The notes below the pieces were generated by a model. That model did not search any database. It saw only the letters and a list, made by a program, of their open reading frames with translations, and had not been told where the DNA came from. From Candidatus Kapaibacterium sp. (GTDB taxonomy: Bacteria > Patescibacteriota > Patescibacteriia > UBA9934): a stretch of 64,000 bases of DNA. The position numbers were made by a program, and so were the translations under genes. The stretch is from contig JBILHA010000002.1 of assembly GCA_044350705.1 (NCBI GenBank), positions 30,542 to 94,541 on the forward strand, read 5' to 3'. Positions 1,768 to 63,646 of the stretch are shown in pieces (positions within the stretch are counted from its first letter, which is position 1; each line of letters starts with the position of its first letter).

Positions 1768-1776
1768 AGAAAAATA

Positions 1777-2292: not shown

Positions 2293-2295
2293 GAT

Positions 2296-3779: not shown

Positions 3780-3808
3780 ATGGGGAAAGTATAGCAGAAA
3801 AGCCCTCC

Positions 3809-4528: not shown

Positions 4529-4542
4529 CCGCTCTCATGTTC

Positions 4543-6964: not shown

Positions 6965-8070
6965 TATAAGATCTCTTCTTGTTGTACTTTCTTTTGTGCG
7001 AGTATCTCAAGCGCTTCATGCACAATGCGCTCATCCGCATTGACCGGAAAGATTCTTCGAAGACGTTCCGCACGTTCACTCCGATACTCTTGAGACTGCA
7101 ACATCTTGGTGATTGCTTGCAATAATACTTGCGGCGTCATATGCGAGAGGACGTCCGCAGCCTCCTGCGCTTCCAATGCTCGCGCATTTTCTTCCTGCTG
7201 CGATCCAGGGAGAGGAATGATAATGGAAGCCTTACCAAGTGCAGCCAACTCTGAAATAGTTCCCATGCCCGCACGAGCAACCACAACATCTGCGACCGCA
7301 TAGGCATCCGCGAGACCCTCATGGAGGAACTCAAGGGCAATGTAGGACTTTCCTTGCTCTTGCAATGTTTGCAACGCAGGAAGCATCTTTCCCCTTCCCG
7401 TAAGGTGGATCACATTTGCTATCCGAAGCACTTCATCAGCAATAATGAGCATTGCTTCATTCAGGGAAGCTGCTCCCGTGCCTCCCCCAAGGACTAACAG
7501 GGTCGGATACTCAGGACGAAGCCCGTATCGGTCTCGTGCACTTACTCGGTCACCCAATGCCAAGGTGCTTCTCACCATCGTCCCGACTACCGTGGTCTTC
7601 TTTGCGGGATAGGCTTCCGCGCTCTGAGGCCACGTCGTACTCATGCGCTTGGCGAACGGCGCCATGACGCGATTCGCCACACCTGGACGCACGTCGAGTT
7701 CATGCACCCACACGGGAATGCGCATCAGCCACGCTACCAGTGCCACAGGGACAGAAACATATGCCCCTGCAGAAAATACCATGTCGGGCCGTATCGCTTT
7801 GAGCATCTTCGCGGCCTTATACATGCTCCAAAGCATGTGCAACGGAATGAACGGATACGTCCACTTGCGATAGCGATTCATGCGAGGCGCAGTGAGTTCA
7901 TAAAAAGGAATTTTCGCTCCTTCAACGAGTAGTCGTTCCGGGCCCTTCGGAGTTCCTATCCAAGAACAACGCACTTCCGGATCTCTCCTGCGCCACTGTG
8001 CCGCAACCGAAAGAAGGGGGGTGACTGGCCCCAATGTCCCTCCGCCGGTAAAGAGAATGTGATGCGCCAT
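6964..8070 (-). CDS. murG: UDP-GlcNAc:undecaprenyl-PP-MurNAc-pentapeptide GlcNAc transferase MurG
   Basis: 368 aa; N-terminal ILFTGGGTLGPVTPLL (GGGTGGH-type), C-terminal GT-B with AGMGTISELAALGKASIIIP and a trailing EE pair; dcw context. Confidence 0.9.
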   Translation of the reverse strand: MAHHILFTGGGTLGPVTPLLSVAAQWRRRDPEVRCSWIGTPKGPERLLVEGAKIPFYELTAPRMNRYRKWTYPFIPLHMLWSMYKAAKMLKAIRPDMVFSAGAYVSVPVALVAWLMRIPVWVHELDVRPGVANRVMAPFAKRMSTTWPQSAEAYPAKKTTVVGTMVRSTLALGDRVSARDRYGLRPEYPTLLVLGGGTGAASLNEAMLIIADEVLRIANVIHLTGRGKMLPALQTLQEQGKSYIALEFLHEGLADAYAVADVVVARAGMGTISELAALGKASIIIPLPGSQQEENARALEAQEAADVLSHMTPQVLLQAITKMLQSQEYRSERAERLRRIFPVNADERIVHEALEILAQKKVQQEEIL

Positions 8071-8082
8071 AGAGATTTTTTT

Positions 8083-9714
8083 TTATTTCCTTCCTCTTTC
8101 CATCGCTGCTTTTACAAAAGCTCTAAATAAAGGATGAGGTGACAGTGGTCGCGATTGAAACTCTGGGTGGAATTGTACCCCAACGAAAAAAGGATGATCC
8201 TTTACTTCAACAATCTCCACCAATGTTCCATCAGGAGAGACCCCGGATATTTCTAAGCCCGCGCTCTCCAGATCTTCTTTATATGCATTGTTGAATTCGT
8301 AACGATGACGGTGACGTTCAGAAATTGCTCTTTGGGTATACGCCTTTTCTGCCGTACTCCCCTCTTTCAGATGGCAGGGATACGACCCTAAACGCAATGT
8401 TCCTCCCACGCCTGGTCCTTTCAGCTTCTCTTCCTGTCCCTGCATGAGATGAATGACGGGGTATGTACTCTTTGGATTAATCTCTTCGGTATTTGCATCG
8501 CTCCATCCAAGCTCGGTGCGCGCGAATTCAATTACCGCGCATTGCATGCCATAGCAAATTCCGAAATAAGGAATTCGGTGTTTTCTCACAAAGCGGATTG
8601 CGGCAATTTTGCCCTCTATTCCTCGAGAGCCAAATCCCCCCGGAATAAGAATGCCGTCAAATGAACGCAGTTCTTCAAGCGCGTCAGGATTCTTTTCGTA
8701 AGTTTCTGCATTCAACCATTCAATAACCGGTTTCGCATGCTGCGCCCAACTCGCATGTTTAATCGCCTCCAAAACAGAAAGATATGCATCTGAGAGCAAA
8801 AAATCTCCGGTTGAAAAATATTTCCCGATGACCCCGATGCGTACTTCTTTCTGCGAAGTTCCAATGGTCTCCACGAATTGTTCCCAGGGGGCCAGATCTG
8901 GCTTCTTTTTTCGCTTTCCGAACGCGGTGAGGACACTATCTGCAAATCCCTGCGCTTCAAACGCAAGGGGCACCTCATAAATAGAGCGTACGTTTGCTGC
9001 AGTAATAATATGTTCTTTCGCTACACCGCAAAAACGGCTGAGCTTTTCTTTCCGAGGAGCATCCAAGGCGAGCTCCGAACGACAGATGAGAAAATCGGGG
9101 GCGAGTCCTGTTCGGTTCATTTCACGCACGGCGTGTTGCGTGGGCTTTGTTTTCATTTCTCCAATCGAGGGAGGCACCGGGAGATAACTCACGAGTACCG
9201 TCTTCACTCGTTTTGGATCGTGCAGCTGCATCATGCGTACTGCTTCAAGGAAGAGAATATTTTCATACTCCCCTACCGTTCCTCCGATTTCTATGAGCGT
9301 AAAATCAGCTTTTGCTTCTTTTGCCGCCGTTTTAATACGCGCAATGACTTCTTCGGGTACGCGCGGAACCACTTCAACACATTTCCCCTCATACTCTCCT
9401 CTGCGCTCACGTTCAATAACTGAGAGATAAATACGTCCAGTCGTCATGTAGTTTTTCTTGGTAATGTCGATATCCAAGAAACGCTCGTAATTCCCGATAT
9501 CCTGATCGGTCTCATCTCCGTCTCTCGTCACAAATACTTCCCCGTGCTCAACGGGATTCATCGTGCCCGCATCCACATTCACATACGGATCAATCTTCAT
9601 GGCGGTCACCTTATAGCCCCTCGCACGCAACAGGAGACCAAGTGCTGCGGTGGATGTTCCTTTGCCTACTCCACTCATTACGCCCCCCACCACGAAAATG
9701 TAGTTATGATCCAT
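8083..9714 (-). CDS. pyrG: CTP synthase PyrG
   Basis: Start taken at ATG 9714 (MDHNYIFVVGGVMSGVGKGTSTAALG...); glutamine amidotransferase motifs (GICYGMQ, HRHRYE) in the C-terminal half; near-universal conservation. Confidence 0.95.
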   Translation of the reverse strand: MDHNYIFVVGGVMSGVGKGTSTAALGLLLRARGYKVTAMKIDPYVNVDAGTMNPVEHGEVFVTRDGDETDQDIGNYERFLDIDITKKNYMTTGRIYLSVIERERRGEYEGKCVEVVPRVPEEVIARIKTAAKEAKADFTLIEIGGTVGEYENILFLEAVRMMQLHDPKRVKTVLVSYLPVPPSIGEMKTKPTQHAVREMNRTGLAPDFLICRSELALDAPRKEKLSRFCGVAKEHIITAANVRSIYEVPLAFEAQGFADSVLTAFGKRKKKPDLAPWEQFVETIGTSQKEVRIGVIGKYFSTGDFLLSDAYLSVLEAIKHASWAQHAKPVIEWLNAETYEKNPDALEELRSFDGILIPGGFGSRGIEGKIAAIRFVRKHRIPYFGICYGMQCAVIEFARTELGWSDANTEEINPKSTYPVIHLMQGQEEKLKGPGVGGTLRLGSYPCHLKEGSTAEKAYTQRAISERHRHRYEFNNAYKEDLESAGLEISGVSPDGTLVEIVEVKDHPFFVGVQFHPEFQSRPLSPHPLFRAFVKAAMERGRK

Positions 9715-9733
9715 ACGCAAAAAATTTTTGGCA

Positions 9734-10861
9734 TTATACGACAAGTTCCTTCTGGGATTTTGAAACATTCAACACCACCCCCACGGCGGTCATCGCAATG
9801 GCGAGGGCCGTTCCTCCATAGCTCACAAACGGGAGAGGCACCCCCGTAATTGGAAGAAGAGCGACCATTGCTCCGATATTTACAAAGGCTTGAATCCCTA
9901 ACCATGCCATGACTCCTACGACGAGATAGGTTCCAAAGGTGTCCGGCGCACGTTCCGCAATAACGAGCCCACGAAACAGCATGGCGACATACAAAATCAC
10001 GAATGCCGAAGTAAGCACAAAACCTAGCTCTTCTGCGATGACCGCAAAAATACTATCTCCTGCCACTTCAGGAAGATATTGAAACTTTTGCAGACTGTGC
10101 CCATACCCTCTTCCTAAAAATCCTCCTGATCCGACCGCAAGGAGCGCCTGATTGATCTGATAGCCTGATCCTTGCTTATCAAGCTCCGGATGAAGAAAGG
10201 CGGTAAGACGCTCCGCGCGGTACGGGGATATGGTAAATAGTAACCAAAGCAATGCCGCTCCCGCTATTCCAAAAAATGCAAAATACTTGAGCGGAGCACC
10301 TGCAACAAAATAGACTGCCAGTGCCATCATGACGATAATTCCCATGGTTCCTGTATCTGGCTGCAAAAGGAGGAGCACCATAATAGCCCCCAATACTACA
10401 AGAAATGGAAGCAATCCCTTTGTAGCATCTTTTACGTTCTTTCCCATGGATCCTTCAAGCCAGGCGGCAAGATAGATAAGGAACGTGAATTTTACGAGTT
10501 CGGACGGTTGAAAGGAAAACAGACCGAGAGAGATCCAACTTCTCGAGCCCTTAATTTCGATCCCTAATCCGGGAACAAAAACGATGAGAAGGAGCAGGAG
10601 CGAGATTCCGAGCATGGGGAGTGCAAACTTTCTGTAGGACTGATGAGGCACAAGATATGCAACCGTGAAGCCTACCAATCCGGGAAGTACCCCGAAAAGC
10701 AACTGACGCGCGAGGAAGTAATACCCATTTCCATGGAAGCGATCAAAACCGAGCGGCCAAGAAGCTGATGCAAGCATGAGCAGGCCGAACACAAGCACTC
10801 CCGCAAAGAGTAGTGCAAAGATTTTATCTCCCGCAACATGCATTCCTCCAGAGCCACGCAT
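9734..10861 (-). CDS. ftsW: SEDS-family peptidoglycan glycosyltransferase FtsW
   Basis: 375 aa, ~10 TM; conserved LPEVAGDSIFAVIAEELGF and LPITGVPLPFVSYGGTA blocks of FtsW/RodA; located between mraY and murG. Confidence 0.85.
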   Translation of the reverse strand: MRGSGGMHVAGDKIFALLFAGVLVFGLLMLASASWPLGFDRFHGNGYYFLARQLLFGVLPGLVGFTVAYLVPHQSYRKFALPMLGISLLLLLIVFVPGLGIEIKGSRSWISLGLFSFQPSELVKFTFLIYLAAWLEGSMGKNVKDATKGLLPFLVVLGAIMVLLLLQPDTGTMGIIVMMALAVYFVAGAPLKYFAFFGIAGAALLWLLFTISPYRAERLTAFLHPELDKQGSGYQINQALLAVGSGGFLGRGYGHSLQKFQYLPEVAGDSIFAVIAEELGFVLTSAFVILYVAMLFRGLVIAERAPDTFGTYLVVGVMAWLGIQAFVNIGAMVALLPITGVPLPFVSYGGTALAIAMTAVGVVLNVSKSQKELVV

Positions 10862-10866
10862 ATTTT

Positions 10867-11925
10867 TTATTGCGTGAGAAAGCCGTAATCAATAAATGCG
10901 AGCGCAAGACCAATACCCGCCCCCATCCAACTCAATACCCAAAAGCGCATGACCACTTTCGGTTCAGGCCATCCTTTGGCTTCAAAGTGGTGATGAATAG
11001 GCGCAATGAGAAATACCTTTTTCTTAAAGATTTTTTTTGATCCAATTTGGATAAACGTGGTGAGCGCCTCCGCGACAAAGACAATACCGATGATCGGCAA
11101 GAGAAATGCAGCGTTTGTGAGCATGGCCACTACTCCAAGCGTTACTCCCAAGCTCATCGCGCCTGTATCTCCCATGATAAAACGGGCGGGGTAGATATTG
11201 AACCAGAGGAAAGCAAGAATCGTTCCCACGATCACTGCACAAAATGCAGCCAAGTCCACTCTCCCCTGCATGAGTGCAATGACCGCGTATGCCGCAAACG
11301 CGGTTGCAAGGGTACCCCCCGCAAGTCCATCCAATCCGTCCGTTTGGTTTACCGAGAATGAAGTCGCCACAATAACCGCAACAAAAAACGGAACATACAA
11401 CCACCCCATGAATATGTCTCCGTAGAGCGGAAGATGGAGCGTATCCCAGCCAAGCTTTACATAGAACCACCAAGCCCCCACCAAGGCAATCAGGGTGTAC
11501 AGCACGAGACGATGAGAGATGCGGATTCCTCCTCCGTGAGGACCTATTTTGTAAATATTGAAAATATCGTCAGCTACCCCTACTCCACCTGCAATAATCA
11601 ACGCCGCCAGAGGGAGCCAAGTCTGAGATCGTGAGAAAAAGTTGAGTTGCGCAAGCGTACTTCCTGGCTCAAGCCACGCAATTCCTGCAAAGAGCAGCGC
11701 GATGAAGCCTGTTGTCACCCACATGAGGAGACCGCCCATAGTTGGTACGCCGGCCTTCTTTTTATGAAGCTCGGCAAACATGGGCGCCGTGACCGCACTT
11801 CGGATACTCTTTCCTAAGCGGTATTTGTATAAAAAATGCGTCAACGCAGGAGTCCATGCGATGGCGAGAATAAATCCAAGTGTTGAAAGGATAAGTAATT
11901 TTGAGAGTGCGAAAGCATCAACCAT
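10867..11925 (-). CDS. mraY: Phospho-N-acetylmuramoyl-pentapeptide transferase MraY
   Basis: Start at ATG 11925 (MVDAFALSKLLIL; the track ORF begins at an upstream TTG); conserved MraY blocks ADDIFNIYK, NQTDGLDGLAGG, PIHHHFEAKGW. Confidence 0.9.
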   Translation of the reverse strand: MVDAFALSKLLILSTLGFILAIAWTPALTHFLYKYRLGKSIRSAVTAPMFAELHKKKAGVPTMGGLLMWVTTGFIALLFAGIAWLEPGSTLAQLNFFSRSQTWLPLAALIIAGGVGVADDIFNIYKIGPHGGGIRISHRLVLYTLIALVGAWWFYVKLGWDTLHLPLYGDIFMGWLYVPFFVAVIVATSFSVNQTDGLDGLAGGTLATAFAAYAVIALMQGRVDLAAFCAVIVGTILAFLWFNIYPARFIMGDTGAMSLGVTLGVVAMLTNAAFLLPIIGIVFVAEALTTFIQIGSKKIFKKKVFLIAPIHHHFEAKGWPEPKVVMRFWVLSWMGAGIGLALAFIDYGFLTQ

Positions 11926-12328
11926 ATGCAATATTAATAAGCACGATACGCACCAGCGCAATCAGCGAGAGAACGCCTACGAAGAGCGTGGCCGTCCAGG
12001 CGGCAAGCGCGAGCATGGTTCTTTTTTTCAGGAGCGTTGCAGCTACCAGACCATTCACCAATGCAATCACGAGCGCAGCCGTAGAGACTTCAAACAACAT
12101 CCACCACGGACCAAATGCATCAATACCTACATAGATGTTGTAGTGCAGGGGAACGCTGTCTCTTCCGTACACCAGAGGGAGGATTCGCCAGCTTAAGAGC
12201 GCCAAACCAAGGAGCCAACAGATCCCAAAAACTACCGTAGACGCCTTACGCACGACGGGAAGCAGTTCTTCTTCAATGACCGGTTGTTGTTTATTTGCTG
12301 CCACAAGGTTTTCCTTATTGTACCGCAC
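11918..12328 (-). CDS. Hypothetical small polytopic membrane protein
   Basis: 136 aa ORF (GTG start) with four hydrophobic segments; overlaps the mraY start by 8 nt; no family recognised. May be shorter or non-coding. Confidence 0.3.
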   Translation of the reverse strand: MRYNKENLVAANKQQPVIEEELLPVVRKASTVVFGICWLLGLALLSWRILPLVYGRDSVPLHYNIYVGIDAFGPWWMLFEVSTAALVIALVNGLVAATLLKKRTMLALAAWTATLFVGVLSLIALVRIVLINIAYG

Positions 12329-17330: not shown

Positions 17331-18194
17331 TTAGGCTTCCAACAGAGAGCGCAGATAGTTTCCGTATCCACTCTTCATGTACGGCTCCGCAAGCTTTTCG
17401 AGCTGCGCGTCGGTGATAAACCCTTCACGCCACGCAACTTCTTCAATACATCCCACTTTTAATCCGGTGCGCTGCTGAATGACTTCAACAAAGTTTGCCG
17501 CATCGTGCATCGCCTCAAATGTTCCCGTATCAAGCCATGCCGTGCCTCGGCCAAGAAGCGATACCTTCAGCTTTTCTTTTTTGCGATATTCGTCAAGAAC
17601 GCTCACGATTTCTATTTCTCCGCGATGACTCGGTTGAACCTGTTTTGCAATTGCTACCACCTCATTGTCGGTAAAGTACAAGCCTGCATTTGCGTAACTA
17701 CTCTTCGGCTTTTCTGGCTTCTCTTCAATGGAGAGAACGTTCATGTTCGCATCAAATTCGTATACTCCATAGCGCTGAGGGTCTTTTACCCGAGCTGCAA
17801 ATGCTACCGCGCCATCAACCTTGCGGTATTGTTTGAGCGTCTGTCCCATATCTGCTCCATGAAACAAGTTATCCCCCAAAATCATTCCCACCGAATCGTT
17901 TCCGATAAATTGTTCTCCAACGATATACGCATCAGCAAGACCCCGAGGCTCTTCTTGAACCGCATAGGAAAACGTACATCCAAGTCGCGATCCATCGCCA
18001 AGCAATTCTTCAAAGCGAGAAAGATCTTTTGGTGTAGAAATAATGAGTATTTCTCGAATGCCTGCAAGCATGAGGGTTGAGAGCGGATAGTAAATCATCG
18101 GCTTGTCGTAAACGGGAACAAGCTGCTTGATGACTCCTTGTGTAATAGGATACAGGCGGGTTCCTGAACCCCCTGCGAGAACAATTCCTTTCAT
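17331..18194 (-). CDS. rmlA: Glucose-1-phosphate thymidylyltransferase RmlA
   Basis: MKGIVLAGGSGTRLYPIT...; LGDNLF; C-terminal RmlA oligomerisation region; 287 aa. Confidence 0.95.
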   Translation of the reverse strand: MKGIVLAGGSGTRLYPITQGVIKQLVPVYDKPMIYYPLSTLMLAGIREILIISTPKDLSRFEELLGDGSRLGCTFSYAVQEEPRGLADAYIVGEQFIGNDSVGMILGDNLFHGADMGQTLKQYRKVDGAVAFAARVKDPQRYGVYEFDANMNVLSIEEKPEKPKSSYANAGLYFTDNEVVAIAKQVQPSHRGEIEIVSVLDEYRKKEKLKVSLLGRGTAWLDTGTFEAMHDAANFVEVIQQRTGLKVGCIEEVAWREGFITDAQLEKLAEPYMKSGYGNYLRSLLEA

Positions 18195-18199
18195 ATTCT

Positions 18200-19045
18200 T
18201 TATCCCTGGGAATTTTTCTCAGCAAACTTTTTCACCGTATCAAGAACCGCCTCTTGTACCGGTCGCATCGTGATTCCAAATTCTGACAAACGCTCTGACG
18301 CAAGGAAATTATTTGAACGCCCCTTTGTTGCAAGACCTTGCGCAACTAATTCTTCGTTTGAAATCCATTCACACGCGTGTGAAGGATCAACCATTTCTTT
18401 ATAAAGCCCGAGGATCTCTCGGTGTTTAATCGTTCCTGGATTTGTAACATGGAAGAATCCGGTCGCTTTCTTTTCCATGAGCTTGTAGAAGACATCGACC
18501 ATATCGTCTATCACGGTTATTGAATTCTCTACATCAATGACCTTCGGATATTTTGCGAGCTTCTCTAAAAGATTTCCCGGATTTGACGCGTGATCAATAG
18601 GCATGCGGATGCGTGCGATCCCTACATGAGGGAGCGTTGATAAGGCAAGATCTGCCGCCCATTTGGTGCGGCTATACGTTGCACTTGGATTTCCAAAATC
18701 ATTTTCTCGCCATGCTTGATCTGGATGCTGGGATGGGCCATAAAAAATGCACCCTGATCCCATATGAAGCATATAAACTCCTCTTTCTTGGCACGCGAAA
18801 GCAACCCAAAGCGGAACCATCACATTTCCTTCAATCGTTTCTCGCTGATGAGATTCACACCAGTCCACATTTGGTGTTCCCTTTACTCCAATGGTGCATA
18901 GTACCGCATCGGGCTTCACGCGATCGATCTCCTGCAGCGCAGATTCAACCGAAGTAATGCGCACCTCAGAAAGTACCGCTTCATCTCCCCATGCCGTCGC
19001 ACATCGATTTCCTAAATACCCTTTTCCAAAGATGAGAATTTTCAT
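18200..19045 (-). CDS. NAD(P)-dependent sugar-nucleotide reductase, dTDP-4-dehydrorhamnose reductase (RmlD)-like
   Basis: Start ATG 19045 (MKILIFGKGYLGNRCA, Rossmann GxGxxG); catalytic YxxxK as YSRTK; ~282 aa, typical RmlD size; lies between rmlA and rmlB. Confidence 0.55.
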   Translation of the reverse strand: MKILIFGKGYLGNRCATAWGDEAVLSEVRITSVESALQEIDRVKPDAVLCTIGVKGTPNVDWCESHQRETIEGNVMVPLWVAFACQERGVYMLHMGSGCIFYGPSQHPDQAWRENDFGNPSATYSRTKWAADLALSTLPHVGIARIRMPIDHASNPGNLLEKLAKYPKVIDVENSITVIDDMVDVFYKLMEKKATGFFHVTNPGTIKHREILGLYKEMVDPSHACEWISNEELVAQGLATKGRSNNFLASERLSEFGITMRPVQEAVLDTVKKFAEKNSQG

Positions 19046-19052
19046 ACAAGTA

Positions 19053-20063
19053 TTACACCTTTCCTTGATAATGTTCTTCGTAATACGACTGATACGCTCC
19101 GGAAGTACAACGCTCAACCCATTCCTTATGCTCTTCAAACCACTTCATCGTCCTTTCTAGCCCCTCCTCAAGAGAAACGAGGGGCTCCCATCCGAGCTTT
19201 TCTTTCGCGAATGCGTAATCGATCGCATAGCGACGATCATGGCCGGGACGATCAGTGACGTAGGCGATGAAAGACTCATCACGTCCCGTAAGTGCAAGAA
19301 GTTTTTTGGTAAGCTCGAGATTTGTTATCTCGGCATCTTTTCCTCCGAATAAATACGTCTCTCCCTTTTCTCCCATGCGAAGTGCCATGTCCACTCCCCT
19401 GCAATGATCTTCGACATAAATCCAGTCTCGTACCTGACTTCCATCGCCATACACAGGAACCTTTTTTCCTGCTTTTAAGTTACGAATAAAGAGTGGAATT
19501 AGCTTTTCTGGAAAGTGAAATGGACCGTAGTTGTTTGAGCAATTGGAAATTGTCGCAAAAAGATCGTGCGTATTTACATATGCGCGTACCAAATGATCAG
19601 AAGCGGCCTTTGTAGCACTGTATGGATTCTTCGGATCGTATGGCGTGCTCTTTGAAAATGGCGGGTCGTTTGGTGTGAGTGCACCAAATACTTCGTCGGT
19701 TGAGACGTGGTGGAATCTTTTTTTATGGCGTACCGCCGCATCGAGGAGCGTTTGCGTGCCGAGTACATTCGTTCGCACGAACGGACGATTGTCTTTAATG
19801 GAGCGATCAACGTGCGTTTCTGCGGCAAAGTGCACAATAGCATCGCATTCGGCAACGAGCGCATCCATGCGTGCCTCGTCACAAATATCTGCTTTTTCAA
19901 AGCGCACGCGCGAACTCTTTACCGCATCTTCCAAGTTCTCTAAATTTCCCGCGTACGTGAGTACATCAACTGCGATAATTTCATCTTCGGGATGGGCGCC
20001 TAGTACATAATGCACGTAATTCGCGCCAATAAATCCCGCCGCACCGGTTACAAGAATTTTCAT
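19053..20063 (-). CDS. rmlB: dTDP-glucose 4,6-dehydratase RmlB
   Basis: MKILVTGAAGFIGANYVHYVL...; extended SDR with YSATKAASD (YxxxK); HVSTDEVFG; 336 aa. Confidence 0.95.
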   Translation of the reverse strand: MKILVTGAAGFIGANYVHYVLGAHPEDEIIAVDVLTYAGNLENLEDAVKSSRVRFEKADICDEARMDALVAECDAIVHFAAETHVDRSIKDNRPFVRTNVLGTQTLLDAAVRHKKRFHHVSTDEVFGALTPNDPPFSKSTPYDPKNPYSATKAASDHLVRAYVNTHDLFATISNCSNNYGPFHFPEKLIPLFIRNLKAGKKVPVYGDGSQVRDWIYVEDHCRGVDMALRMGEKGETYLFGGKDAEITNLELTKKLLALTGRDESFIAYVTDRPGHDRRYAIDYAFAKEKLGWEPLVSLEEGLERTMKWFEEHKEWVERCTSGAYQSYYEEHYQGKV

Positions 20064-53475: not shown

Positions 53476-53934
53476 ATGGCATCTGTATTTTGTATGCCCC
53501 TTGCCGTGAATCCCAAAGCGCGCCACTCCTTTGACCTCATTGAGCAATTTGAGGGCGGCTTGGTGTTAACCGGCGCTGAGGTGAAAGCAACCATGCAGGG
53601 CAATGCAAATATTAAAGGAGCATTCGTTACTTTGCGCAATGGTGAGCTCTGGCTTCGGAATGCCTACATCGGCCACTACACGCCTTCCGGCCCCCAGCCC
53701 GAAGGAGCTGAACGACGAGATAGAAAGATTCTCGTACATAAAAACGAAATCCGTACGCTCATCATGCGTCATGAAGCAGAACGCCTGACCATGATTCCTT
53801 TGGATATCCACCTCTCTGGGCGGCGCATCAAACTCTCTTTTGCTCTCGCACGCGGAAAACGCAAGCATGAAAAACGCGCGTCAATAAAAAAACGAGAGGT
53901 GGATCGAGAGATCCGCAGAGCGCTGAAGAACTAA
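53476..53934 (+). CDS. smpB: SsrA-binding protein SmpB
   Basis: NPKARHSFDLIEQFEGGLVLTGAEVKA...GELWLRNAYIGHYTP...DRKILVHKNEI...LSFALARGKRKHEKRASIKKREVDREIRR: canonical SmpB. Start could alternatively be ATG 53494. Confidence 0.9.
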   Translation: MASVFCMPLAVNPKARHSFDLIEQFEGGLVLTGAEVKATMQGNANIKGAFVTLRNGELWLRNAYIGHYTPSGPQPEGAERRDRKILVHKNEIRTLIMRHEAERLTMIPLDIHLSGRRIKLSFALARGKRKHEKRASIKKREVDREIRRALKN

Positions 53935-53936
53935 AA

Positions 53937-53964
53937 AACTTCCTACATCTGTAGGAAGTTTTTT
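53937..53964. terminator. Bidirectional hairpin terminator shared by smpB (+) and tmRNA (-)
   Basis: aaaaaacttcctaca tc tgtaggaagtttttt: 9-11-bp stem with A/T runs on both sides; abuts the tmRNA CCA end. Confidence 0.75.
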
Positions 53965-54378
53965 GGTGGACCTGACGGGAATTGAACCCGTATCCGAGGA
54001 ACGTTCGCCAAAACTCTTTCTTCCAAGCTCATTCGCGTTTAGAGGGTTTACGTCTTTTTCGGTCAAGAAACGCGACGAACAACGAAACCGACGATGACAC
54101 GGCAAGGGTCCCTTATGCAGTGCGTCATCCCTGCAAAGGCAAGCGAGAAGGGTTATGACATGACTACTTTACGCACTCGCAGCGTAAAGGTCATGGGTGG
54201 CGGCGTTATTACGCGGCGACCGGAACAAAGGAAGGCGTGCGGAGCGCAGAAGCGACGACAGCCTTCACTTTTGAAAATACGTTTGCATGTACTTTCTGAA
54301 GCGTGTGATAACGCGGGACGCTTCGCCCGCGGCTTGAGAGGGATTGGGAATGATCTTCGTCGAAAGCCTAACAGGCCC
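53964..54378 (-). ncRNA. ssrA: tmRNA (SsrA transfer-messenger RNA), ~415 nt
   Basis: 3' end on the minus strand reads GGGUUCAAUUCCCGUCAGGUCCACCA (T-arm, acceptor, CCA). The 5' end GGGCCUGUUAGGCUUUCGACGAAG pairs with it over 7 bp including a G3-U70 wobble. Conserved UUCGACG box. In-frame tag ORF from resume codon GCA: GCA AAC GUA ... GCC GCG UAA UAA gives ANVFSKVKAVVASALRTPSFVPVAA with a double stop. Convergent with smpB. Confidence 0.85.
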
Positions 54379-55041: not shown

Positions 55042-55623
55042 TTGCTTCTTTTTAACCCCACGACAATGCGCATCCACAAACATCGCCGGTTCCAAACGCC
55101 TAAATTTGCTCCTCAAGTCTATAAAGCAAATCAGGCAATTACCGCAGAAGAAGTTCGCGTTATTGATGAAGAAGGCAATGCTTTGGGCGTTATGCCGACC
55201 AGCAAAGCCGTCGCTCTTGCCGCGGAACGCGAGCTTGATCTTATCGAAGTTTCTCCAAAAGCTGAGCCTCCTGTTTGTAAGATCGGGGACTACGGTCAGT
55301 TCAAGTACCAAAAGGAAAAAGAAGCTCGTAAGCAGCGTGCCCAGTCCAAAGAGGTCGAAATTAAAGGTATTCGTCTTGGATTGCGTATCGGCGAAGGCGA
55401 CCTGAACATTCGCGTACAGCAGGGCGTTAAATTCTTTGAACAGGGAGATAAAATCAAAGTAGAAATGATTCTCCGAGGCCGTGAACGTGCGTATCAGGTC
55501 CAGGCCCAGGCCGTTTTTGATACCTATGTCGAGAAACTCAAGGTGCACTATCCGGTAAAAATCGAGTCTCCCGTGAAGGCACAGGGGGGAAAATTGCACA
55601 TGATCCTTGCACGTCAGACCTAA
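55042..55623 (+). CDS. infC: Translation initiation factor IF-3
   Basis: IRVIDEEGNALGVMPTSKAVALAAERELDLIEVSPKAEPPVCKIGDYGQFKYQKEK...: canonical IF3. The track start is TTG at 55042, with AAGGAAG 10 nt upstream; IF3 genes typically use non-ATG starts. ATG at 55066 is the alternative. Confidence 0.9.
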   Translation: MLLFNPTTMRIHKHRRFQTPKFAPQVYKANQAITAEEVRVIDEEGNALGVMPTSKAVALAAERELDLIEVSPKAEPPVCKIGDYGQFKYQKEKEARKQRAQSKEVEIKGIRLGLRIGEGDLNIRVQQGVKFFEQGDKIKVEMILRGRERAYQVQAQAVFDTYVEKLKVHYPVKIESPVKAQGGKLHMILARQT

Positions 55624-55696
55624 TGATATACACAAAAAAGTTGACGTAATTGAGAAAATTCCGTACAGTAATGCGGAATTTTCTTTTTCCCCTCGT

Positions 55697-55894
55697 ATGG
55701 CTATTAAGACCAACAAATCCATGGCAAAGCGCATCAAGATCACCAGCTCTGGAAAGATCATGAAGCGCAAGGCTGGCCAGGATCACTTCAATTCCCGTGA
55801 ATCCGGCAACACCACGCGCAATAAGCGCACCGATGTCAAAATGAGCAAAACGGTTATCCGCGCGCTCAAGACGCTCATGCCCTACAGCTTCTAA
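55697..55894 (+). CDS. rpmI: 50S ribosomal protein L35
   Basis: MAIKTNKSMAKRIKITSSGKIMKRKAGQDHFNSRESGNTTRNKRTDVKMSKTVIRALKTLMPYSF: L35 pattern (KxKTxxxxxKRxKxTxxGKxxRxxAxxxHxL.K..K.KR.LR). The track ORF is extended upstream without support. Confidence 0.9.
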   Translation: MAIKTNKSMAKRIKITSSGKIMKRKAGQDHFNSRESGNTTRNKRTDVKMSKTVIRALKTLMPYSF

Positions 55895-55920
55895 TCATTT
55901 CTTTTCTCTCTTTATTTCCT

Positions 55921-56265
55921 ATGCCACGCGTAAAACGCGGTACGCAGCACGTCAAGCGCCGCAAAAATCTCCTCGCTAAGGTAAAAGGCTTCTCTTGGGG
56001 CCGTAAGAGCAAGATCCGCCTTGCTCGCCCTGCGATGCTCAAAGCCGGAATGTACGCATTCCGCGACCGCCGCGCAAAGAAGCGCACCTTCCGCAACCTT
56101 TGGACCATTAAGATCAATGCCGCAGTTCGTGAACTCGGCCTTTCCTACTCGGTCTTCATGGCAAACCTCAAGAAGGCAAATATCGCCCTTGATCGTAAGG
56201 TTTTGGCCCAGATTGCTGAAAAGAGCCCTACAACGTTTGCAAAAATCGTTGACGCGGCAAAATAG
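55921..56265 (+). CDS. rplT: 50S ribosomal protein L20
   Basis: MPRVKRGTQHVKRRKNLLAKVKGFSWGRKSKIRLARPAMLKAGMYAFRDRRAKKRTFRNLWTIKINAAVRELGLSYSVFMANLKKANIALDRKVLA: canonical L20. Confidence 0.95.
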   Translation: MPRVKRGTQHVKRRKNLLAKVKGFSWGRKSKIRLARPAMLKAGMYAFRDRRAKKRTFRNLWTIKINAAVRELGLSYSVFMANLKKANIALDRKVLAQIAEKSPTTFAKIVDAAK

Positions 56266-56436: not shown

Positions 56437-57435
56437 GTGGCCGCGAACCCCATCAAGCCACTCGTTGTGGCCCTCCTCGCTCGCATCCCGGGCGCACTCC
56501 AGATCGCCGCGGACCTGGCGTCCCTCAAGGACGAGCAGATCCTGACCGACGAGACGGCCGCGACCTGGAAGAGCCTGCAGAATGAGGCCGAGGCTATCCA
56601 GATGGAAGCCGAAAGCCTCGAGCAGGACGGCTTCCGGAAGCCGACCCTCGACCCCCTCCCCTCTCCGCCGGAAGACGGCAAAGAGGTTCCGGACAAGGTC
56701 GTCTTCTTCAAGACGGGCGTCGGTACGGTGAAGAGCAACCTGGACAAGCTCCAAGAAGCCCTCACCACCTTCGAGGCCTCCCTCGTCGACCCGGCTCCCC
56801 CGCCGCCCCCGCCGCCGCCCCCCGCGGACCCGGGGCCCAAGCAGCCCCCGCCGCCCCCGGGCGGACGGCGCCCGCGGCCGCCGCACCCCACCGCCGCCGC
56901 CCAGCCCCCGAAGAAGGGGTGGCAAGGCTGGGTGGCCGGCGGTATCGCGTTTCTCCTGTTCCTCACCTTCATCCTCTGGGCCCTGTGGCCCGAGGAGGAG
57001 AAGGTGGTGGCGGTGACCCCGCCGCCGGTCGAGGAGCCCGCCGCCCCGGCGAAGGCGAAGGTGGAGGCCCCCAAGCCGAAGCCCGCTCCGGTGGCGGTTC
57101 CGTCGCCGGCCCCGACCCCCTACGGCGAGATGCCCCGCGCGTGCGCGGATGCACTCGACAACGTGGGCGACATGGACGGCGACGGTATCGCCGAGACCTA
57201 CACCATGGTGCCCATCGGCAACGGTGCGGCCCTGTACGTGTCGGGTGTGGAGGTTAAGGACGGCGCGTGCACCATCTCCAACGGCGAGTTCGCCGCGCTC
57301 CACACGGAGTTCGGTGAGAGGCTGAAGGGGATCGCGCTGAAGGGCCGGTTCACCCCCGTGGTGACCCTGAGCGGCGGCCGCAAGGTCCGCTGCAACAAGG
57401 GCCCCGGGGGATTCGAGAACTGCTTCGAGGGGTAG
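56437..57435 (+). CDS. Hypothetical Pro-rich single-pass membrane protein (high-GC)
   Basis: GTG start 7 nt after AAGGAG; poly-Pro tracts (PPPPPPPPPAD, PPPPPGG), one TM (GWVAGGIAFLLFLTFILWALW), C-terminal Cys-containing domain; GC3-dominated codons unlike neighbouring rplT. Confidence 0.5.
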   Translation: MAANPIKPLVVALLARIPGALQIAADLASLKDEQILTDETAATWKSLQNEAEAIQMEAESLEQDGFRKPTLDPLPSPPEDGKEVPDKVVFFKTGVGTVKSNLDKLQEALTTFEASLVDPAPPPPPPPPPADPGPKQPPPPPGGRRPRPPHPTAAAQPPKKGWQGWVAGGIAFLLFLTFILWALWPEEEKVVAVTPPPVEEPAAPAKAKVEAPKPKPAPVAVPSPAPTPYGEMPRACADALDNVGDMDGDGIAETYTMVPIGNGAALYVSGVEVKDGACTISNGEFAALHTEFGERLKGIALKGRFTPVVTLSGGRKVRCNKGPGGFENCFEG

Positions 57436-57660: not shown

Positions 57661-57737
57661 GGGGCGGTAGTTCAATTGGTTAGAGCACTGCCCTGTCACG
57701 GCAGAAGTTGCGGGTTCGAGTCCCGTCCGCCCCGCCA
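57661..57737 (+). tRNA. tRNA-Asp (anticodon GTC), CCA encoded
   Basis: GGGGCGG ta GTTC aattggtta GAGC a CTGCC ctGTCac GGCAG aagtt GCGGG ttcgagt CCCGT CCGCCCC g CCA: full cloverleaf, anticodon loop cuGUCac. Confidence 0.9.
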
Positions 57738-58376: not shown

Positions 58377-58393
58377 CGCTGCTGACCACGCGA

Positions 58394-58417
58394 CCCGCCT
58401 CACATCTGTGAGGCGGG
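58394..58417 (+). terminator. Hairpin terminator 1 after the small secreted-protein gene
   Basis: cccgcctcaca tc tgtgaggcggg (11-bp stem) followed by tattgattt. Confidence 0.55.
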
Positions 58418-58494
58418 TATTGATTTACGCAAAAATGTAGGCAAGAGGGAGCTTCCGGAAACAAACTCCACTCGCTCCATAACGTCCCGCCATG

Positions 58495-58525
58495 AAAAAA
58501 CCTTAGCTTCGGCTAAGGTTTTTTC
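58495..58525 (+). terminator. Hairpin terminator 2 (ccttagc ttcg gctaagg plus T6)
   Basis: aaaaaaccttagcttcggctaaggttttttc; ~65 nt upstream of the desaturase start. Confidence 0.6.
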
Positions 58526-58593: not shown

Positions 58594-60084
58594 ATGACTC
58601 CATCGTCTTCACGGACTGTCTTTGCATGGGCCGCGGGCTTTACCTGGCTCCCTTTTCTGTTTTTCATCGGCATGCATCTCACGCCCCTGCTTCTTTTTTT
58701 CACAGGATTTTCTTTCCAGGATTTTATCGCCCTGCTCATGTTTTATGCCCTGCAAATTTTCGGCATCTCTGCAGGGTACCACCGCTATTTTTCTCATCGC
58801 AGTTTTCGTGCAGGACGAGGGATGCAATTTTTCCTTGCCTGGCTTGGAAGCATGCCCTTTCAGCATCTCTTTTCCTGGGCAGGACTTCACCGTCATCACC
58901 ATCGGGTTTCCGACACTGAAATCGATCTGCACTCCCCCATCCGAGGCTTCCTGTGGAGTCATATCCTTTGGATTTTTGCGAAACGCGATCTCCACGGTAT
59001 TGCGCAAACCGTTCCTGATTTACAAAAATTCCCCGAGCTTCGGTTTTTAGATCGTTTCTTTTATCTTCCGGCATGCGTCAGCATCCTCATCAGTTACGCA
59101 TATGGTGGCTGGAGTATGGTTGTTGGAGGATTTCTCTTGTCAGTTCTTTTTGTGTGGCATGCCATGTTTTCCATCAACTCACTCACGCACATTATTGGAT
59201 CTCGCCGCTATGCGACAAACGACATGAGCCGAAACTCGTTTCTTCTTGCGCTGGTAACATTCGGCGAGGGATGGCACAACAATCATCATCACTTTTCCTC
59301 ATCAACCCGCCAAGGATTTTTTTGGTGGGAACTTGACCTGAGCTACCTTATCCTTCGCGTGTTTGCACTTCTTGGCCTTGTGCACGATTTACGCGATCCG
59401 CTTCCCGCACATAAGCAGTTTCGTCTTTTGCGTGAAGGCGATGAAGATATTGGACTCGTCACTGCGCTTGCTCGCATGCGGACGCTGGCCCCTCAGCATC
59501 CGCTCTGGATTCGCGTTCTCACCCATGTCCTTACGATTGGGGCTACCATTGCGTCACTCACCCTCCTTGTTCTTGTGGGGGCAATCCAGGCTCAAGCTGC
59601 TTTCATTGTTGGCGCTTCCATTTTTGGCGCAGCAACACTTGCGTTCTTTATTCTCCATATCTGGCAATTCGGCACCAGTCTTGCGAATCTCGCGCTCTTT
59701 GTCGCAGGCGCATTTACTCCGCTGCTCATTCTTCTTGGTATGCAAAACGGCTGGGGTTGGGCGCTTCTTTCGCTCATGTGGTCCATCACGGGTGCTACCG
59801 CGCTCTTCCCCTTCATGCGTCGTCATCAGCGCCTCGTGAAGCGCATTAGCCTCTCTCTTCTGCTGAGTATTGCCGCATTGGCATTGTTCATCGGCCGAGA
59901 TATCTTTTTTGCCAATAACTCTGCAGCGCTCTTCCTCTGGACTTCTATCGCGTGCATTACCTTTGCGTATACGACGCTTCCCATTTGGAATGTTTTCCGA
60001 CTACGCGTCGCGTTTCACCTCTTCTTACTTGCGGGCAGTGTTTCGTATTCACTTTTCCTTCATCAGCTCGCATTCGTGGTATAA
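58594..60084 (+). CDS. Acyl-CoA (delta-9-type) fatty-acid desaturase fused to a C-terminal ~200-aa polytopic membrane extension
   Basis: His boxes HRYFSH, HRHHH and GEGWHNNHHHF in the order and spacing of stearoyl-CoA desaturase/DesC; residues ~300-496 are an additional set of ~6 hydrophobic helices not part of the desaturase fold. Confidence 0.85.
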   Translation: MTPSSSRTVFAWAAGFTWLPFLFFIGMHLTPLLLFFTGFSFQDFIALLMFYALQIFGISAGYHRYFSHRSFRAGRGMQFFLAWLGSMPFQHLFSWAGLHRHHHRVSDTEIDLHSPIRGFLWSHILWIFAKRDLHGIAQTVPDLQKFPELRFLDRFFYLPACVSILISYAYGGWSMVVGGFLLSVLFVWHAMFSINSLTHIIGSRRYATNDMSRNSFLLALVTFGEGWHNNHHHFSSSTRQGFFWWELDLSYLILRVFALLGLVHDLRDPLPAHKQFRLLREGDEDIGLVTALARMRTLAPQHPLWIRVLTHVLTIGATIASLTLLVLVGAIQAQAAFIVGASIFGAATLAFFILHIWQFGTSLANLALFVAGAFTPLLILLGMQNGWGWALLSLMWSITGATALFPFMRRHQRLVKRISLSLLLSIAALALFIGRDIFFANNSAALFLWTSIACITFAYTTLPIWNVFRLRVAFHLFLLAGSVSYSLFLHQLAFVV

Positions 60085-60120: not shown

Positions 60121-60978
60121 ATGCCTCGCTTTCAGAAACTCCGTGTACTCATCCAGCATCTGCTCAAGCGCTACCGCTCTTCTCATGCGGAAGCATGGGC
60201 AGCAAGTATCAGTTTTTACACCATGCTCGCGCTTCCGGCCCTTTTTACCGTACTTTTCAGTGGGGTGCGCTCGTTTATTTCTCAAGAAGAACTCCAGCTT
60301 CTCTTTGCATCTTTTCTCCCTCAAGCAATTTTTGCAGGATCTCTCCAGGACTTTATTGCGGCGTCGTACGAAAAACCTCTCGCACTCCCCCTCCTCTTCT
60401 CTCTGCTAATCGCCCTCTTCTCTGCAGGAAAAATCTTCTCCCATCTCACGATTGCGCTTGGAGAGATCTGGCATTTCTCGCCTCTTGTCCTTCCCAAAAA
60501 GACGAAGACTACGCTCATTGCCCGCGTTGCTACCTTCGCTCAACGGCGTCTCAGCGATATTCTTCCTCTTTTCATCCTCGTGTGCTCCCTCGTTGTTCTC
60601 ATCCTCGCGCATACCGTCTTTCATATTCTTCTTCCTCTTCTTACCCCTCTTTTCCCCGAGGTTTCTCTTTTTCTTCCCCTCCTTTCCTCGCTCCTCTTTC
60701 TTAGTATTTCAGGTGGCGTATGCGCCCTGTTCTTTCGCATCTTCTCCAAAAAGAAGTTCGATGCTCGGCAGTGCGGTCTGGGAGGATTCATGACTGCGTT
60801 TCTTCTTTTTCTCGGGCAGCTGGCGCTTGGGCTTTATTTCCGCCTCGTTGACGTCGGCGATGGATTTGGCGCACTTGGATCGGCTGTAGCGCTCCTCCTC
60901 TGGCTGTACTACTCTGCAAGCATCTTTCTCTTTGGTGCAACGCTTGTATGCAACATCGCTCCTCATACACCCCGTTAG
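60121..60978 (+). CDS. YihY/BrkB family membrane protein (formerly 'ribonuclease BN')
   Basis: AWAASISFYTMLALPALFTVLFS... matches the YihY N-terminal signature (W..sISFY.mLAl.P); 6 TM; 285 aa. Confidence 0.7.
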   Translation: MPRFQKLRVLIQHLLKRYRSSHAEAWAASISFYTMLALPALFTVLFSGVRSFISQEELQLLFASFLPQAIFAGSLQDFIAASYEKPLALPLLFSLLIALFSAGKIFSHLTIALGEIWHFSPLVLPKKTKTTLIARVATFAQRRLSDILPLFILVCSLVVLILAHTVFHILLPLLTPLFPEVSLFLPLLSSLLFLSISGGVCALFFRIFSKKKFDARQCGLGGFMTAFLLFLGQLALGLYFRLVDVGDGFGALGSAVALLLWLYYSASIFLFGATLVCNIAPHTPR

Positions 60979-62723: not shown

Positions 62724-63470
62724 CTAGACGTAGCGCGGGACGATCTCCCACGCGATGGCGGAGGGAACGGGGGCGAAACCGCGGGCCTTGTCGATCCCGA
62801 TCGCCTGGCGGACGAGGATTCCGTCCGGCGGGATTGGGAGGGCCGCAGAGTTCGCGTTGAAGGGCGCGGGATCCTTGCCCGAGACCTCCACCACGAGACC
62901 GGTGGTGCTCATGCCCTTGCGAGCGCTGAACACCGCCCTGCCCTGCAGGAACCAGACCTCCCCCATGACCCTCGGCATGTGAGGGATGGCAAAGGGAAGG
63001 TGAGCATTGACATGGGCCGCCGCGCCGAAGAGCAGCGTACCGCCATGCACCTGCTGGAAGTGATTCATGGAGAAGTGCGTTGGGGGAGTTCCCCGGCTGG
63101 GGACTTCCGCCACGACCTCCGCCAGGATCTCCTCCTCACTCATCCCCGATCCTGCCGCAAGGGTAGCCGGAGCCAGAGGCAGCGTCTCGCTGATCGCTTC
63201 CCCATCGAAGATGACGGGGATCGAAATTCTCTCCCCCTTGTAGTCGACGATAAGCCGGACAAGGATCCCATCCGGCTCCTTCGACTCCTCGGTGGCAGGA
63301 CGAGGCCGCTCGCGGATGATCGGGGGCCGAGCTCCGCTCGGCGTAATCGTGCGACCGATGCCCGCCGGGGGCGGGGGGGGCGGCGAGGGAGCGAAGGCCT
63401 CCCTCGCCGGGGGCTCTTTGAGCCCCCAGAGCACGTTCCAGGCACGTGCGAGCCTCTCGAAGAAGCCCAT
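62724..63470 (-). CDS. Hypothetical protein (high-GC), Pro-rich N-terminal region
   Basis: ATG at 63470 (MGFFERLARAWNVLWGLKEPP...PSPPPPPPAG...); GC3-rich codons; no family recognised. The track ORF begins further upstream. Confidence 0.45.
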   Translation of the reverse strand: MGFFERLARAWNVLWGLKEPPAREAFAPSPPPPPPAGIGRTITPSGARPPIIRERPRPATEESKEPDGILVRLIVDYKGERISIPVIFDGEAISETLPLAPATLAAGSGMSEEEILAEVVAEVPSRGTPPTHFSMNHFQQVHGGTLLFGAAAHVNAHLPFAIPHMPRVMGEVWFLQGRAVFSARKGMSTTGLVVEVSGKDPAPFNANSAALPIPPDGILVRQAIGIDKARGFAPVPSAIAWEIVPRYV

Positions 63471-63646
63471 ACTCCTCCTCTTGCGCAGGAATTGCGCAGG
63501 TATGGCGCGCGGAGTATAGTCGTTTTTTGGGTTTTTTACAAGCGTACCCCCCTTTTTTTCTCCACACTCCCAAACGCAACAAGCCGCCGGCATCCCGAGA
63601 GGACGCCAGCGGCGAACGGTAGAGCGCTTGTCGAGGTTTTGTCTCG

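Follow-up and report, generated by a model that had tools for sequence, protein, structure and literature searches.

The fusion gene at the locus

The subject of this analysis is a gene that joins a membrane fatty-acid desaturase to a second membrane domain, one related to the PAQR/hemolysin III/TrhA family. It lies in a stretch of 64,000 nucleotides (GenBank assembly GCA_044350705.1, contig JBILHA010000002.1, positions 30,542 to 94,541 of the forward strand), and that whole stretch is called the window in what follows. The open reading frame (ORF) has 496 codons and is uninterrupted, with neither a stop nor a frameshift inside. The first-pass annotation, made by a model from the DNA alone, had seen the histidine boxes HRYFSH, HRHHH and HNNHHH at the spacing proper to a desaturase, an ORF that runs on into hydrophobic helices, and a length unusual enough to suggest a fusion. 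These perceptions were sound. The boxes stand at residues 63-68, 99-103 and 228-233, in register with those of the mammalian desaturase SCD1, and about 230 further residues follow the desaturase, with seven helices. The non-fused homologues found by protein search are 281-422 aa in length, while the fusion, at 496 aa, is kept as a single gene in relatives. No second copy of a desaturase or of a PAQR is found elsewhere in the window.

Desaturases are usually about 300-350 aa, and that prior expectation is the sole reason to suspect an artefact, in which a frameshift, a missed stop or a chimeric assembly joined two genes. Nothing was found in its favor. Three independent public contigs, up to 532 kb in length, encode the identical fusion protein, and eight further fusion proteins (P0002-P0009, 493-509 aa, 37-51 % identical overall) can be aligned with it from end to end. 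An exhaustive search added another member, P0196 (494 aa), with the same architecture. These nine diverged, full-length homologues come from different samples and assembly pipelines (JGI, NCBI, Logan), and none supports the break near codon 300 that the first-pass annotation had raised. Base composition is continuous over the junction between the halves, and purifying selection acts on both of them. Frameshift, chimera and mis-assembly are thus ruled out by the identical contigs, the full-length homologues and the purifying selection, and the chance of an artefact is practically nil. The possibility was also raised that relatives carry the two parts as separate genes; no such pair was found, the three nearest stand-alone PAQR genes (P0197, P0126, P0132) having no desaturase adjacent to them. 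The architecture and the assignment of both domains to their families may be taken as very nearly certain.

The two halves are joined by a cytoplasmic linker, which is the least conserved segment of the protein (16-26 % identity across the clade of fusion proteins). Residues 285-307, in the region of the linker, carry three lysines or arginines. Coordinates of all the features are collected in Table 1.

Table 1. Features of the fusion gene, its product and its immediate surroundings, in window coordinates (aa, residues of the fusion protein; TM, transmembrane helix; AF2, AlphaFold2)
Feature	Position	Strand	Evidence and remarks
Whole fusion gene, 496 codons plus stop, ATG start	58594..60084	+	ORF list; full-length homologues aligned
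SCD1-type membrane fatty-acid desaturase domain, aa 1-265	58594..59388	+	Pfam, phmmer, Foldseek
His box 1, H63-RYFS-H68	58780..58797	+	Invariant in 9/9 fusion proteins; matches SCD1 HRLWSH
His box 2, H99-R-H-H102-H103	58888..58902	+	Invariant; matches SCD1 HRAHH
N195-S-L-T-H199, additional TM4 di-iron ligands	59176..59190	+	Invariant; matches SCD1 NSAAH
His box 3, H228-N-N-H231-H232	59275..59289	+	Invariant; matches SCD1 HNYHH
Cytoplasmic linker, aa 266-303, helix at 286-298	59389..59502	+	AF2 secondary structure
Divergent PAQR/HlyIII/TrhA-like 7-TM domain, aa 304-496	59503..60081	+	
TM2/TM3 catalytic remnant: single His H355 kept, Ser of S-x3-H lost, TM2-TM3 loop about 13 residues shorter, TM3 Asp replaced by S362	59656..59679	+	Motif tables, alignment blocks
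TM7 HxxxH remnant: R471-V-A-F-H475, first His replaced by Arg	60004..60018	+	Alignment
Two terminator-like hairpins upstream of the fusion gene (58393-58418 and 58494-58525)	58393..58525	+	Stems of 11 and 14 bp with T-rich tails; pattern match alone
YihY/BrkB-family membrane protein, downstream	60121..60978	+	Pfam PF03631, E=1e-25; 37 nt after the fusion stop

The first domain is a desaturase that retains its metal ligands

Three lines of comparison place the first domain. The Pfam family FA_desaturase (PF00487) covers residues 48-248 (E=6e-13, 49.6 bits against a cut-off of 29.7). The mouse and human SCD1 sequences of the solved structures 4ymk and 4zyo align by phmmer with E about 3e-30 (2.6e-30 for mouse 4ymk), with all metal motifs in register. 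Finally, Foldseek recovers the SCD1 fold, against 4ymk, 4zyo and 6wf2, with E about 2e-12 and a TM-score of 0.72-0.77 on the target. The domain is 26 % identical to SCD1, about 50 % identical to stand-alone bacterial homologues and 48-63 % identical across the fusion clade. All nine histidines and the asparagine of the di-iron centre are kept in every fusion protein that was aligned.

Bacterial delta-9 desaturases are exemplified by DesA and DesB of P. aeruginosa and DesA3 of M. tuberculosis. The NCBIfam equivalog model for DesA (NF049918) gives 75 bits with the window protein, well under its cut-off of 400 bits, and by this measure the desaturase half is related to DesA, not a DesA equivalog. 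By homology, it should be a catalytically intact, O2-dependent di-iron enzyme that introduces a cis double bond, probably at delta-9, into a saturated acyl chain. No gene for an electron donor is evident near the fusion gene in the window, either in the ORF list or in a Pfam scan.

The second domain is PAQR-like

The first-pass annotation saw no desaturase homology in the remainder of the protein, and named a match to a separate known family as an outcome that would count against its reading. Domain searches do give such a match, and place the remainder in the PAQR/hemolysin III/TrhA family, as a divergent member. The NCBIfam model for the PAQR family membrane homeostasis protein TrhA (NF011669) aligns over positions 5-192 of its 199 (E=3e-8), with a score of 33.5 bits that falls below the cut-off of 80, and the window protein has no Pfam match to HlyIII (PF03006) at E<=1. 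Profiles do better than the single sequence. A profile built from eight fusion C-terminal domains and run against 5.8 billion proteins gave 69 matches, all of them stand-alone PF03006 proteins (about 205-234 aa in length), the best at E=1e-21. Comparing the fusion domains with 40 canonical PAQRs by hhalign gave a probability of 99.7 % (E=1e-25, 185 columns). In the other direction, tblastn with one canonical PAQR finds the window at 59476-59787 with E=1e-9. The JGI pipeline had itself put the label 'YqfA (hemolysin III family)' on a C-terminal fragment that falls in the same 90 % cluster. The domain has an AdipoR-like fold, and its closest solved relative is AdipoR2 (5LX9); a search of PDB sequences with the C-domain profile gave no match, an uninformative result where a fold search is needed.

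AF2 models show seven TM helices in this domain. Eight of its lysines and arginines fall in predicted cytoplasmic segments and one falls outside, giving a topology with the N-terminus in and the C-terminus out, which is typical of PAQRs and is also what a domain must have if it is to follow on from an SCD-type desaturase, whose C-terminus is cytoplasmic. The analysis shows that the cytoplasmic mouth of the C-terminal domain is on the same membrane face as the active site of the desaturase. The AF2 model of the full chain has a predicted local distance difference test score (pLDDT) of 93.5 and a predicted template-modelling score (pTM) of 0.84. The latter is above what would be expected of domains free to orient themselves, and this modelled value suggests a fixed interface between them.

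The proper name for the second domain is PAQR-like, or degenerate PAQR-fold, domain, and not TrhA, because it fails both the curated score thresholds and the defining catalytic feature of the family, to which I now turn.

The zinc site has decayed and the domain is maintained

In CREST/PAQR proteins the catalytic set, abbreviated H3-S-D, consists of a serine and a histidine in TM2, an aspartate in TM3 and two histidines in TM7 (HxxxH), which between them bind Zn2+ and a molecule of water (PMC13562381). The stand-alone PAQRs recovered have all five without exception, 40 of 40. The window protein keeps at most two of the five (Table 1), and it has very probably lost the zinc-hydrolase chemistry, to judge from its aligned residues. 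The other fusion proteins have decayed in different ways. P0002 has H / N / H..Y at the catalytic positions and keeps two of five. In P0003-P0007 only the TM2 histidine survives (one of five), with serine in place of the aspartate and Gln..Gln (Lys..Gln in P0005) in place of HxxxH; P0009 also keeps one of the five, and P0008 none, its TM7 positions being Q/Q. The loss extends beyond the ligands: the cytoplasmic loop between TM2 and TM3 is about 13 residues shorter in P0001-P0007, and the canonical motifs 'MGW' in TM5 and 'GG' in TM6 are gone from the fusion clade. The residues that mark the fold, AGxxTP, W389 and the GS of TM7, are invariant in that clade.

Three genes, P0003, P0005 and P0006, all without the aspartate and both TM7 histidines, were compared by the method of Nei and Gojobori. 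Their dN/dS, the ratio of nonsynonymous to synonymous substitution rates, is 0.057-0.087 over the PAQR-like domain and 0.035-0.046 over the desaturase, values that are approximate in that dS (1.1-1.9) is near saturation; pN, the proportion of nonsynonymous differences, is far below the synonymous pS. Strong purifying selection thus acts on domains that have no zinc site, and it marks the PAQR-like domain as a pseudo-enzyme that is being kept and not as a relic in decay.

Degeneracy of this kind is also seen in free-standing proteins. The stand-alone PAQRs closest to the fusion C-domain (P0197, P0198, P0200 and P0204, about 200 aa) are partly degenerate, keeping the TM3 aspartate and the first TM7 histidine and having lost the TM2 serine and histidine and the second TM7 histidine. 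From these sequences, a zinc-site-deficient PAQR subfamily would seem to exist outside fusions too.

A parallel, independent fusion with a different oxygenase

The same exhaustive search found P0230, a protein of 510 aa in which a PAQR domain (PF03006, 84.6 bits) follows a different membrane domain with histidine boxes. A metagenome scan gave 65 loci related to P0230, mostly in JGI environmental metagenomes, 38 of them full length and with no internal stop. The loci lie outside the window (L004-L061, for example L004:4001-5530 and L022:4001-5509) and encode proteins of about 500 aa; some of them (L046-L049, L053, L055-L058) match the N-terminal domain only. That domain, in P0230 and its relatives, is the NCBIfam family NF047868, 'TrhA extension/companion domain', which it matches at 450-500 bits. 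The window protein has no match to NF047868.

Taken individually, 12 of 22 members of the N-terminal domain match Pfam FA_hydroxylase (PF04116), with a best E of 7e-9, and their five clusters of histidines are invariant. By this evidence the NF047868 domain appears to be a divergent membrane oxygenase of the FA_hydroxylase type. Its histidines are at least 95 % conserved. The residues of the attached PAQR domain are a different matter: among 39 sequences, the serine is kept in 23, the TM2 histidine in 28, the aspartate in 20, and the two TM7 histidines in 19 and 20. By these sequences, fusions of PAQR domains with membrane di-iron lipid oxygenases have arisen at least twice, with oxygenases of differing families, and the hydrolase centre has become dispensable in both.

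What the second domain might do

I propose that the single gene gives rise to an integral membrane protein of two modules. The first (aa 1-265) would desaturate an acyl chain. The second (aa 304-496), a non-catalytic pseudo-enzyme under selection, would bind a lipid or acyl chain or else sense the packing of the bilayer, and in so doing it would present substrate to the desaturase, accept its product or gate its activity. The fusion would then be a hard-wired form of a PAQR-to-desaturase axis, one for which animals provide genetic evidence and bacterial TrhA a hint. In animals, PAQR-2 and AdipoR1/2 sustain the expression of desaturases and the fluidity of membranes (PMC7428288, PMC6495173). 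In E. coli, trhA belongs to the FabR regulon of unsaturated-fatty-acid genes and is co-regulated with fabA and fabB (PMC9017321). The host is probably a bacterium of the candidate phyla radiation (CPR; see below), and because bacteria of this group are reported to have no capacity for synthesis of membrane lipids (PMC10939385), the enzyme might serve to adjust the unsaturation of scavenged acyl chains, with no need for a transcriptional circuit. Handling of a lipid substrate was one of two functions suggested for the extension in the first-pass annotation, and it is plausible by analogy: it fits the PAQR fold, and AdipoR2 was crystallised with a C18 fatty acid, according to the title of entry 5LX9. 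Taken as a whole, the explanation, in which a PAQR module without catalysis binds lipid or senses the membrane and is wired directly to a desaturase, stands at about an even chance of being right. The particular role of the second module, in handling lipid, in sensing or in gating, is drawn from analogy and is offered tentatively, with confidence a little short of even.

Some observations weigh against this proposal. One is the near saturation of dS, which leaves the dN/dS values approximate; the others are best considered along with the alternatives that they favor. One such alternative is that the second domain does what a stand-alone TrhA does, in the homeostasis of membrane energetics, and that it was fused merely for co-expression or co-localisation, with no direct coupling to the desaturase. 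TrhA affects membrane potential, not fluidity, in E. coli and B. subtilis, and the study that found this assigns the two proteins no primary role in fluidity (PMC9017321). Furthermore, in the subclade of P0003, P0005, P0006 and P0007 the fusion gene directly follows an ATP-synthase operon, and the linker is the least conserved part of the protein. Against this, H3-S-D is kept in 40 of 40 of the stand-alone proteins and is lost from the fused domains; the chemistry must therefore differ. The same decay in the second oxygenase fusion suggests that the partner alters the constraint, and the pTM of the full-length model speaks for domains held in a set position. An unaltered TrhA function is on balance unlikely.

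A second class of alternative retains hydrolysis. Suppose that the PAQR-like domain were a hydrolase with an altered site, similar to a lipid deacylase or ceramidase, that releases or trims the lipid of the desaturase, so that the protein is a two-step remodelling enzyme. AdipoRs have reported ceramidase activity, according to a review of CREST proteins (PMC13562381). The window protein retains H355, H475 and S362 near the old site, and these may form a residual or altered metal site. The basal member P0196, the most like canonical proteins of all (58.6 bits to TrhA), keeps H, D, H and H, four of the five, and about half of the NF047868-TrhA family keeps the full set. Hydrolysis may then take place in some fusions, P0196 and the NF047868-TrhA proteins among them. 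Despite these considerations, no H3-S-D residue is conserved throughout the clade, and the loop that carries part of the site is the one that has been shortened. P0003-P0007, with serine, glutamine (lysine in P0005) and glutamine where the aspartate and two histidines should be, and P0008, with none of the five, are still under strong purifying selection. An altered hydrolase is quite improbable.

At the other extreme, the second domain may be a passive structural module that anchors, oligomerises, stabilises or localises the desaturase. The loss of catalytic residues alongside the retention of those that determine the fold is what such a module would show, and no ligand-binding motif can be identified. 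SCD-type desaturases, however, have four TM helices of their own and work without any extra domain, as the hundreds of homologues of 281-422 aa attest, and a generic anchor would not need constraint as tight as the dN/dS of 0.06-0.09 seen along some 190 residues. It is also hard to explain by anchoring why PAQR domains should recurrently be partnered with two different lipid oxygenases. A purely structural role is decidedly unlikely. Much more so is the other suggestion of the first-pass annotation, that the extension docks an electron donor, or the variant in which it is itself the donor, in the manner of the cytochrome b5 of fungal OLE1. Membrane desaturases do need an electron donor, the OLE1 protein of yeast has one fused to its C-terminus, and a donor gene is not evident next to the fusion gene in the window. 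Neither Pfam nor NCBIfam finds a cytochrome b5, ferredoxin or flavodoxin match in the domain, nor is there a flavin signature; no histidine or cysteine in it is conserved across the clade; and it is entirely transmembrane and PAQR-homologous. The idea is essentially refuted and may be regarded as extremely improbable.

A wider version of the lipid-handling proposal can be imagined, in which PAQR folds and membrane di-iron lipid oxygenases associate physically and directly, the 7-TM barrel holding an acyl chain or sensing how the bilayer is packed, and so feeding or gating the desaturase with no recourse to hydrolysis. The links seen in animals and with TrhA would then reflect an ancestral coupling of protein to protein, and the CPR and NF047868-TrhA fusions would be its Rosetta-stone fossils. 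This is speculation, and I consider it improbable.

Rarity, host and gene neighborhood

Domains like the second one are rare. When the C-domain profile was run against all 1.84 billion representative proteins, three fell below 1e-30 (a fragment, P0006 and P0196), separated from ordinary PAQRs by a gap of about 25 orders of magnitude in E. Pattern scans of 185,579 GTDB species representatives, made with the single protein and with an alignment of five sequences, found no relative of the C-domain, either because there is none or because the patterns demanded too much.

As to the host, the CTP synthase encoded in the window has named near-neighbors (65-78 % identity) solely among Candidatus Uhrbacteria and the 'Patescibacteria group'. 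This single marker would place the uncultivated organism among the ultra-small Patescibacteria (CPR), as an Uhrbacteria-like bacterium.

Upstream of the fusion gene, the two hairpins (Table 1) may insulate it from the genes that precede it, if the pattern match is to be believed. Downstream, a consensus scan finds no terminator-like site in the 37-nt gap before the YihY/BrkB gene, and the two genes are probably co-transcribed; a convergent pyruvate kinase gene lies beyond. A conserved operon with YihY was considered and rejected, as other loci of the clade have different neighbors. In the P0003/5/6/7 subclade the genes form a tight, co-directional array: the ATP-synthase operon, with or without a photolyase gene, then the fusion gene, a gene for a four-helix membrane protein of 125 aa, a gene for a Cys-rich protein of 109 aa, and one for an Fe/Mn superoxide dismutase. 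The distant P0008 fusion gene has, as its divergent neighbor, a gene whose product is homologous to the 125-aa protein (52 % identity, E=6e-24) and weakly similar to DUF8292; no homologue is present in the window. The protein, of 125-128 aa, is thus an immediate neighbor of the fusion in two distant subclades (L069:5615-5992, L071:3985-4362, L073:1551-1928 and L001:7586-7972, the last on the minus strand), followed in one by the 109-aa protein and the dismutase and having a VKOR gene next to it in the other. Conceivably it is a partner subunit, or else it belongs to the electron path.

Genes related to oxidative stress or light damage recur beside PAQR or fusion genes (L075:3-479 / 476-1129; L069, L071-L073; the P0007 locus). 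An msrA gene overlaps the gene for the stand-alone PAQR P0126 by 4 nt, the third gene downstream of the fusion in the P0003/5/6/7 loci is that of the Fe/Mn dismutase, and in those of P0005 the photolyase gene is directly upstream of the fusion. Such neighbors may reflect an oxic, illuminated habitat, which would fit an O2-dependent desaturase in a CPR bacterium. Directly upstream of the Peregrinibacteria TrhA P0132 is an unannotated gene (L079:3778-4938, also in L078 and L080) with no Pfam or NCBIfam match. By eye it has HNCNAD ... APEGG, recalling the HX4D/EG motifs of glycerolipid acyltransferases, and it may make with P0132, a CPR TrhA, another pair of a PAQR with lipid remodelling.

The rest of the window offers some further observations. 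Two islands of very high G+C content, at 56437-57435 (+) and 62724-63593 (-), reach 0.69-0.75 and about 0.65, where the mean of the window is 0.52. The proteins encoded there are of low complexity, rich in proline and glycine, and have one hydrophobic segment and no family match; many spurious ORFs overlap the islands in other frames. A tmRNA gene at 53964-54378 (-) (Rfam RF00023, 98 bits) adjoins an SmpB-like ORF at 53476-53934, an infC-rpmI-rplT cluster lies at 55042-56265, and a tRNA gene at 57661-57734 (+) is about 860 nt upstream of the fusion gene. A compact array, mostly on the minus strand, occupies 964-12328 and 17331-20063, with genes for type IV pili (prepilin peptidase, PilM-like), murG, CTP synthase, ftsW, mraY and the dTDP-rhamnose pathway (rmlA and others).

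Significance and comparison with known systems

Full-text searches gave nothing relevant to a fusion of a desaturase with a PAQR or hemolysin III domain within the searchable literature. The paper on TrhA does not mention desaturases and says that the mechanism of TrhA remains to be elucidated (PMC9017321), and a 2026 review of CREST proteins lists competing models and mentions neither bacteria nor fusions (PMC13562381). What is described here is a new combination of known families, with the twist that one of them is a pseudo-enzyme; the closest combination to have been catalogued is that of NF047868 with TrhA. Public annotations of the fusion proteins read 'stearoyl-CoA desaturase', 'fatty acid desaturase' or 'hypothetical protein', missing the second domain.

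The fusion provides a natural physical link between two families that have so far been connected just genetically, in the control of membrane fluidity. Together, the PAQR-desaturase and PAQR-oxygenase fusions constitute evidence of the Rosetta-stone type for joint action on the same lipid at the same face of the membrane. That the zinc centre is dispensable and yet the domain is selected points to a function of the PAQR fold that does not depend on hydrolysis. A bacterial system on a single polypeptide is also a compact and testable handle on the relationship between PAQRs and desaturases, the mechanism of which has so far been inferential. Finally, the gene shows that a CPR bacterium with a reduced genome invests in an O2-dependent enzyme of lipid remodelling, although its group is reported to have no synthesis of membrane lipids.

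Each half of the protein has well-studied relatives. The delta-9 desaturases of COG1398 and SCD1 (4YMK, 4ZYO, 6WF2) share with residues 1-265 the fold, the layout of four TM helices with a cytosolic cap, the three histidine boxes and the extra Asn/His ligands; the C-terminal 7-TM PAQR-like domain is found only in the fusion. Fungal OLE1 likewise bears a functional partner on the C-terminus of an SCD-type desaturase, but there the partner is a soluble haem-containing electron donor, cytochrome b5, whereas the PAQR-like partner described here has seven TM helices and bears no redox signature.

Bacterial proteins of the PAQR/hemolysin III/TrhA family (YqfA of E. coli, YplQ of B. subtilis) resemble the C-terminal domain in their seven TM helices, their N-in/C-out topology, homology over nearly the full model and the AGxYTP, W and GS motifs, and they too are associated with the metabolism of unsaturated fatty acids, through the FabR regulon (PMC9017321). 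The domain differs from them in scoring below the family thresholds, in its decayed H3-S-D set and shortened TM2-TM3 loop, in the absence of the MGW and GG motifs, and in being fused rather than free-standing. With the class I PAQRs of eukaryotes, AdipoR1, AdipoR2 and PAQR-2 of C. elegans, the link to desaturases is indirect, by way of signalling and the transcription of the genes that encode them, and current models make it dependent on ceramidase activity and an intact zinc site (PMC13562381). In the fusion, a covalent bond makes the link, and the zinc site has been lost.

The nearest parallel is the NF047868-TrhA family, from soil and peat bacteria and already catalogued by NCBI. Its members, like the window protein, are about 500 aa long and consist of an N-terminal membrane lipid oxygenase with histidine boxes of the di-iron type, joined by a linker to a PAQR domain at the C-terminus, and like it they keep the histidines of the oxygenase and have frequently lost the catalytic set of the PAQR. 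They differ in that the N-terminal domain is similar to FA_hydroxylase/sterol desaturase (PF04116) and not to PF00487, and in that their PAQR domain, at 158-255 bits, resembles canonical TrhA far more than does that of the window protein.

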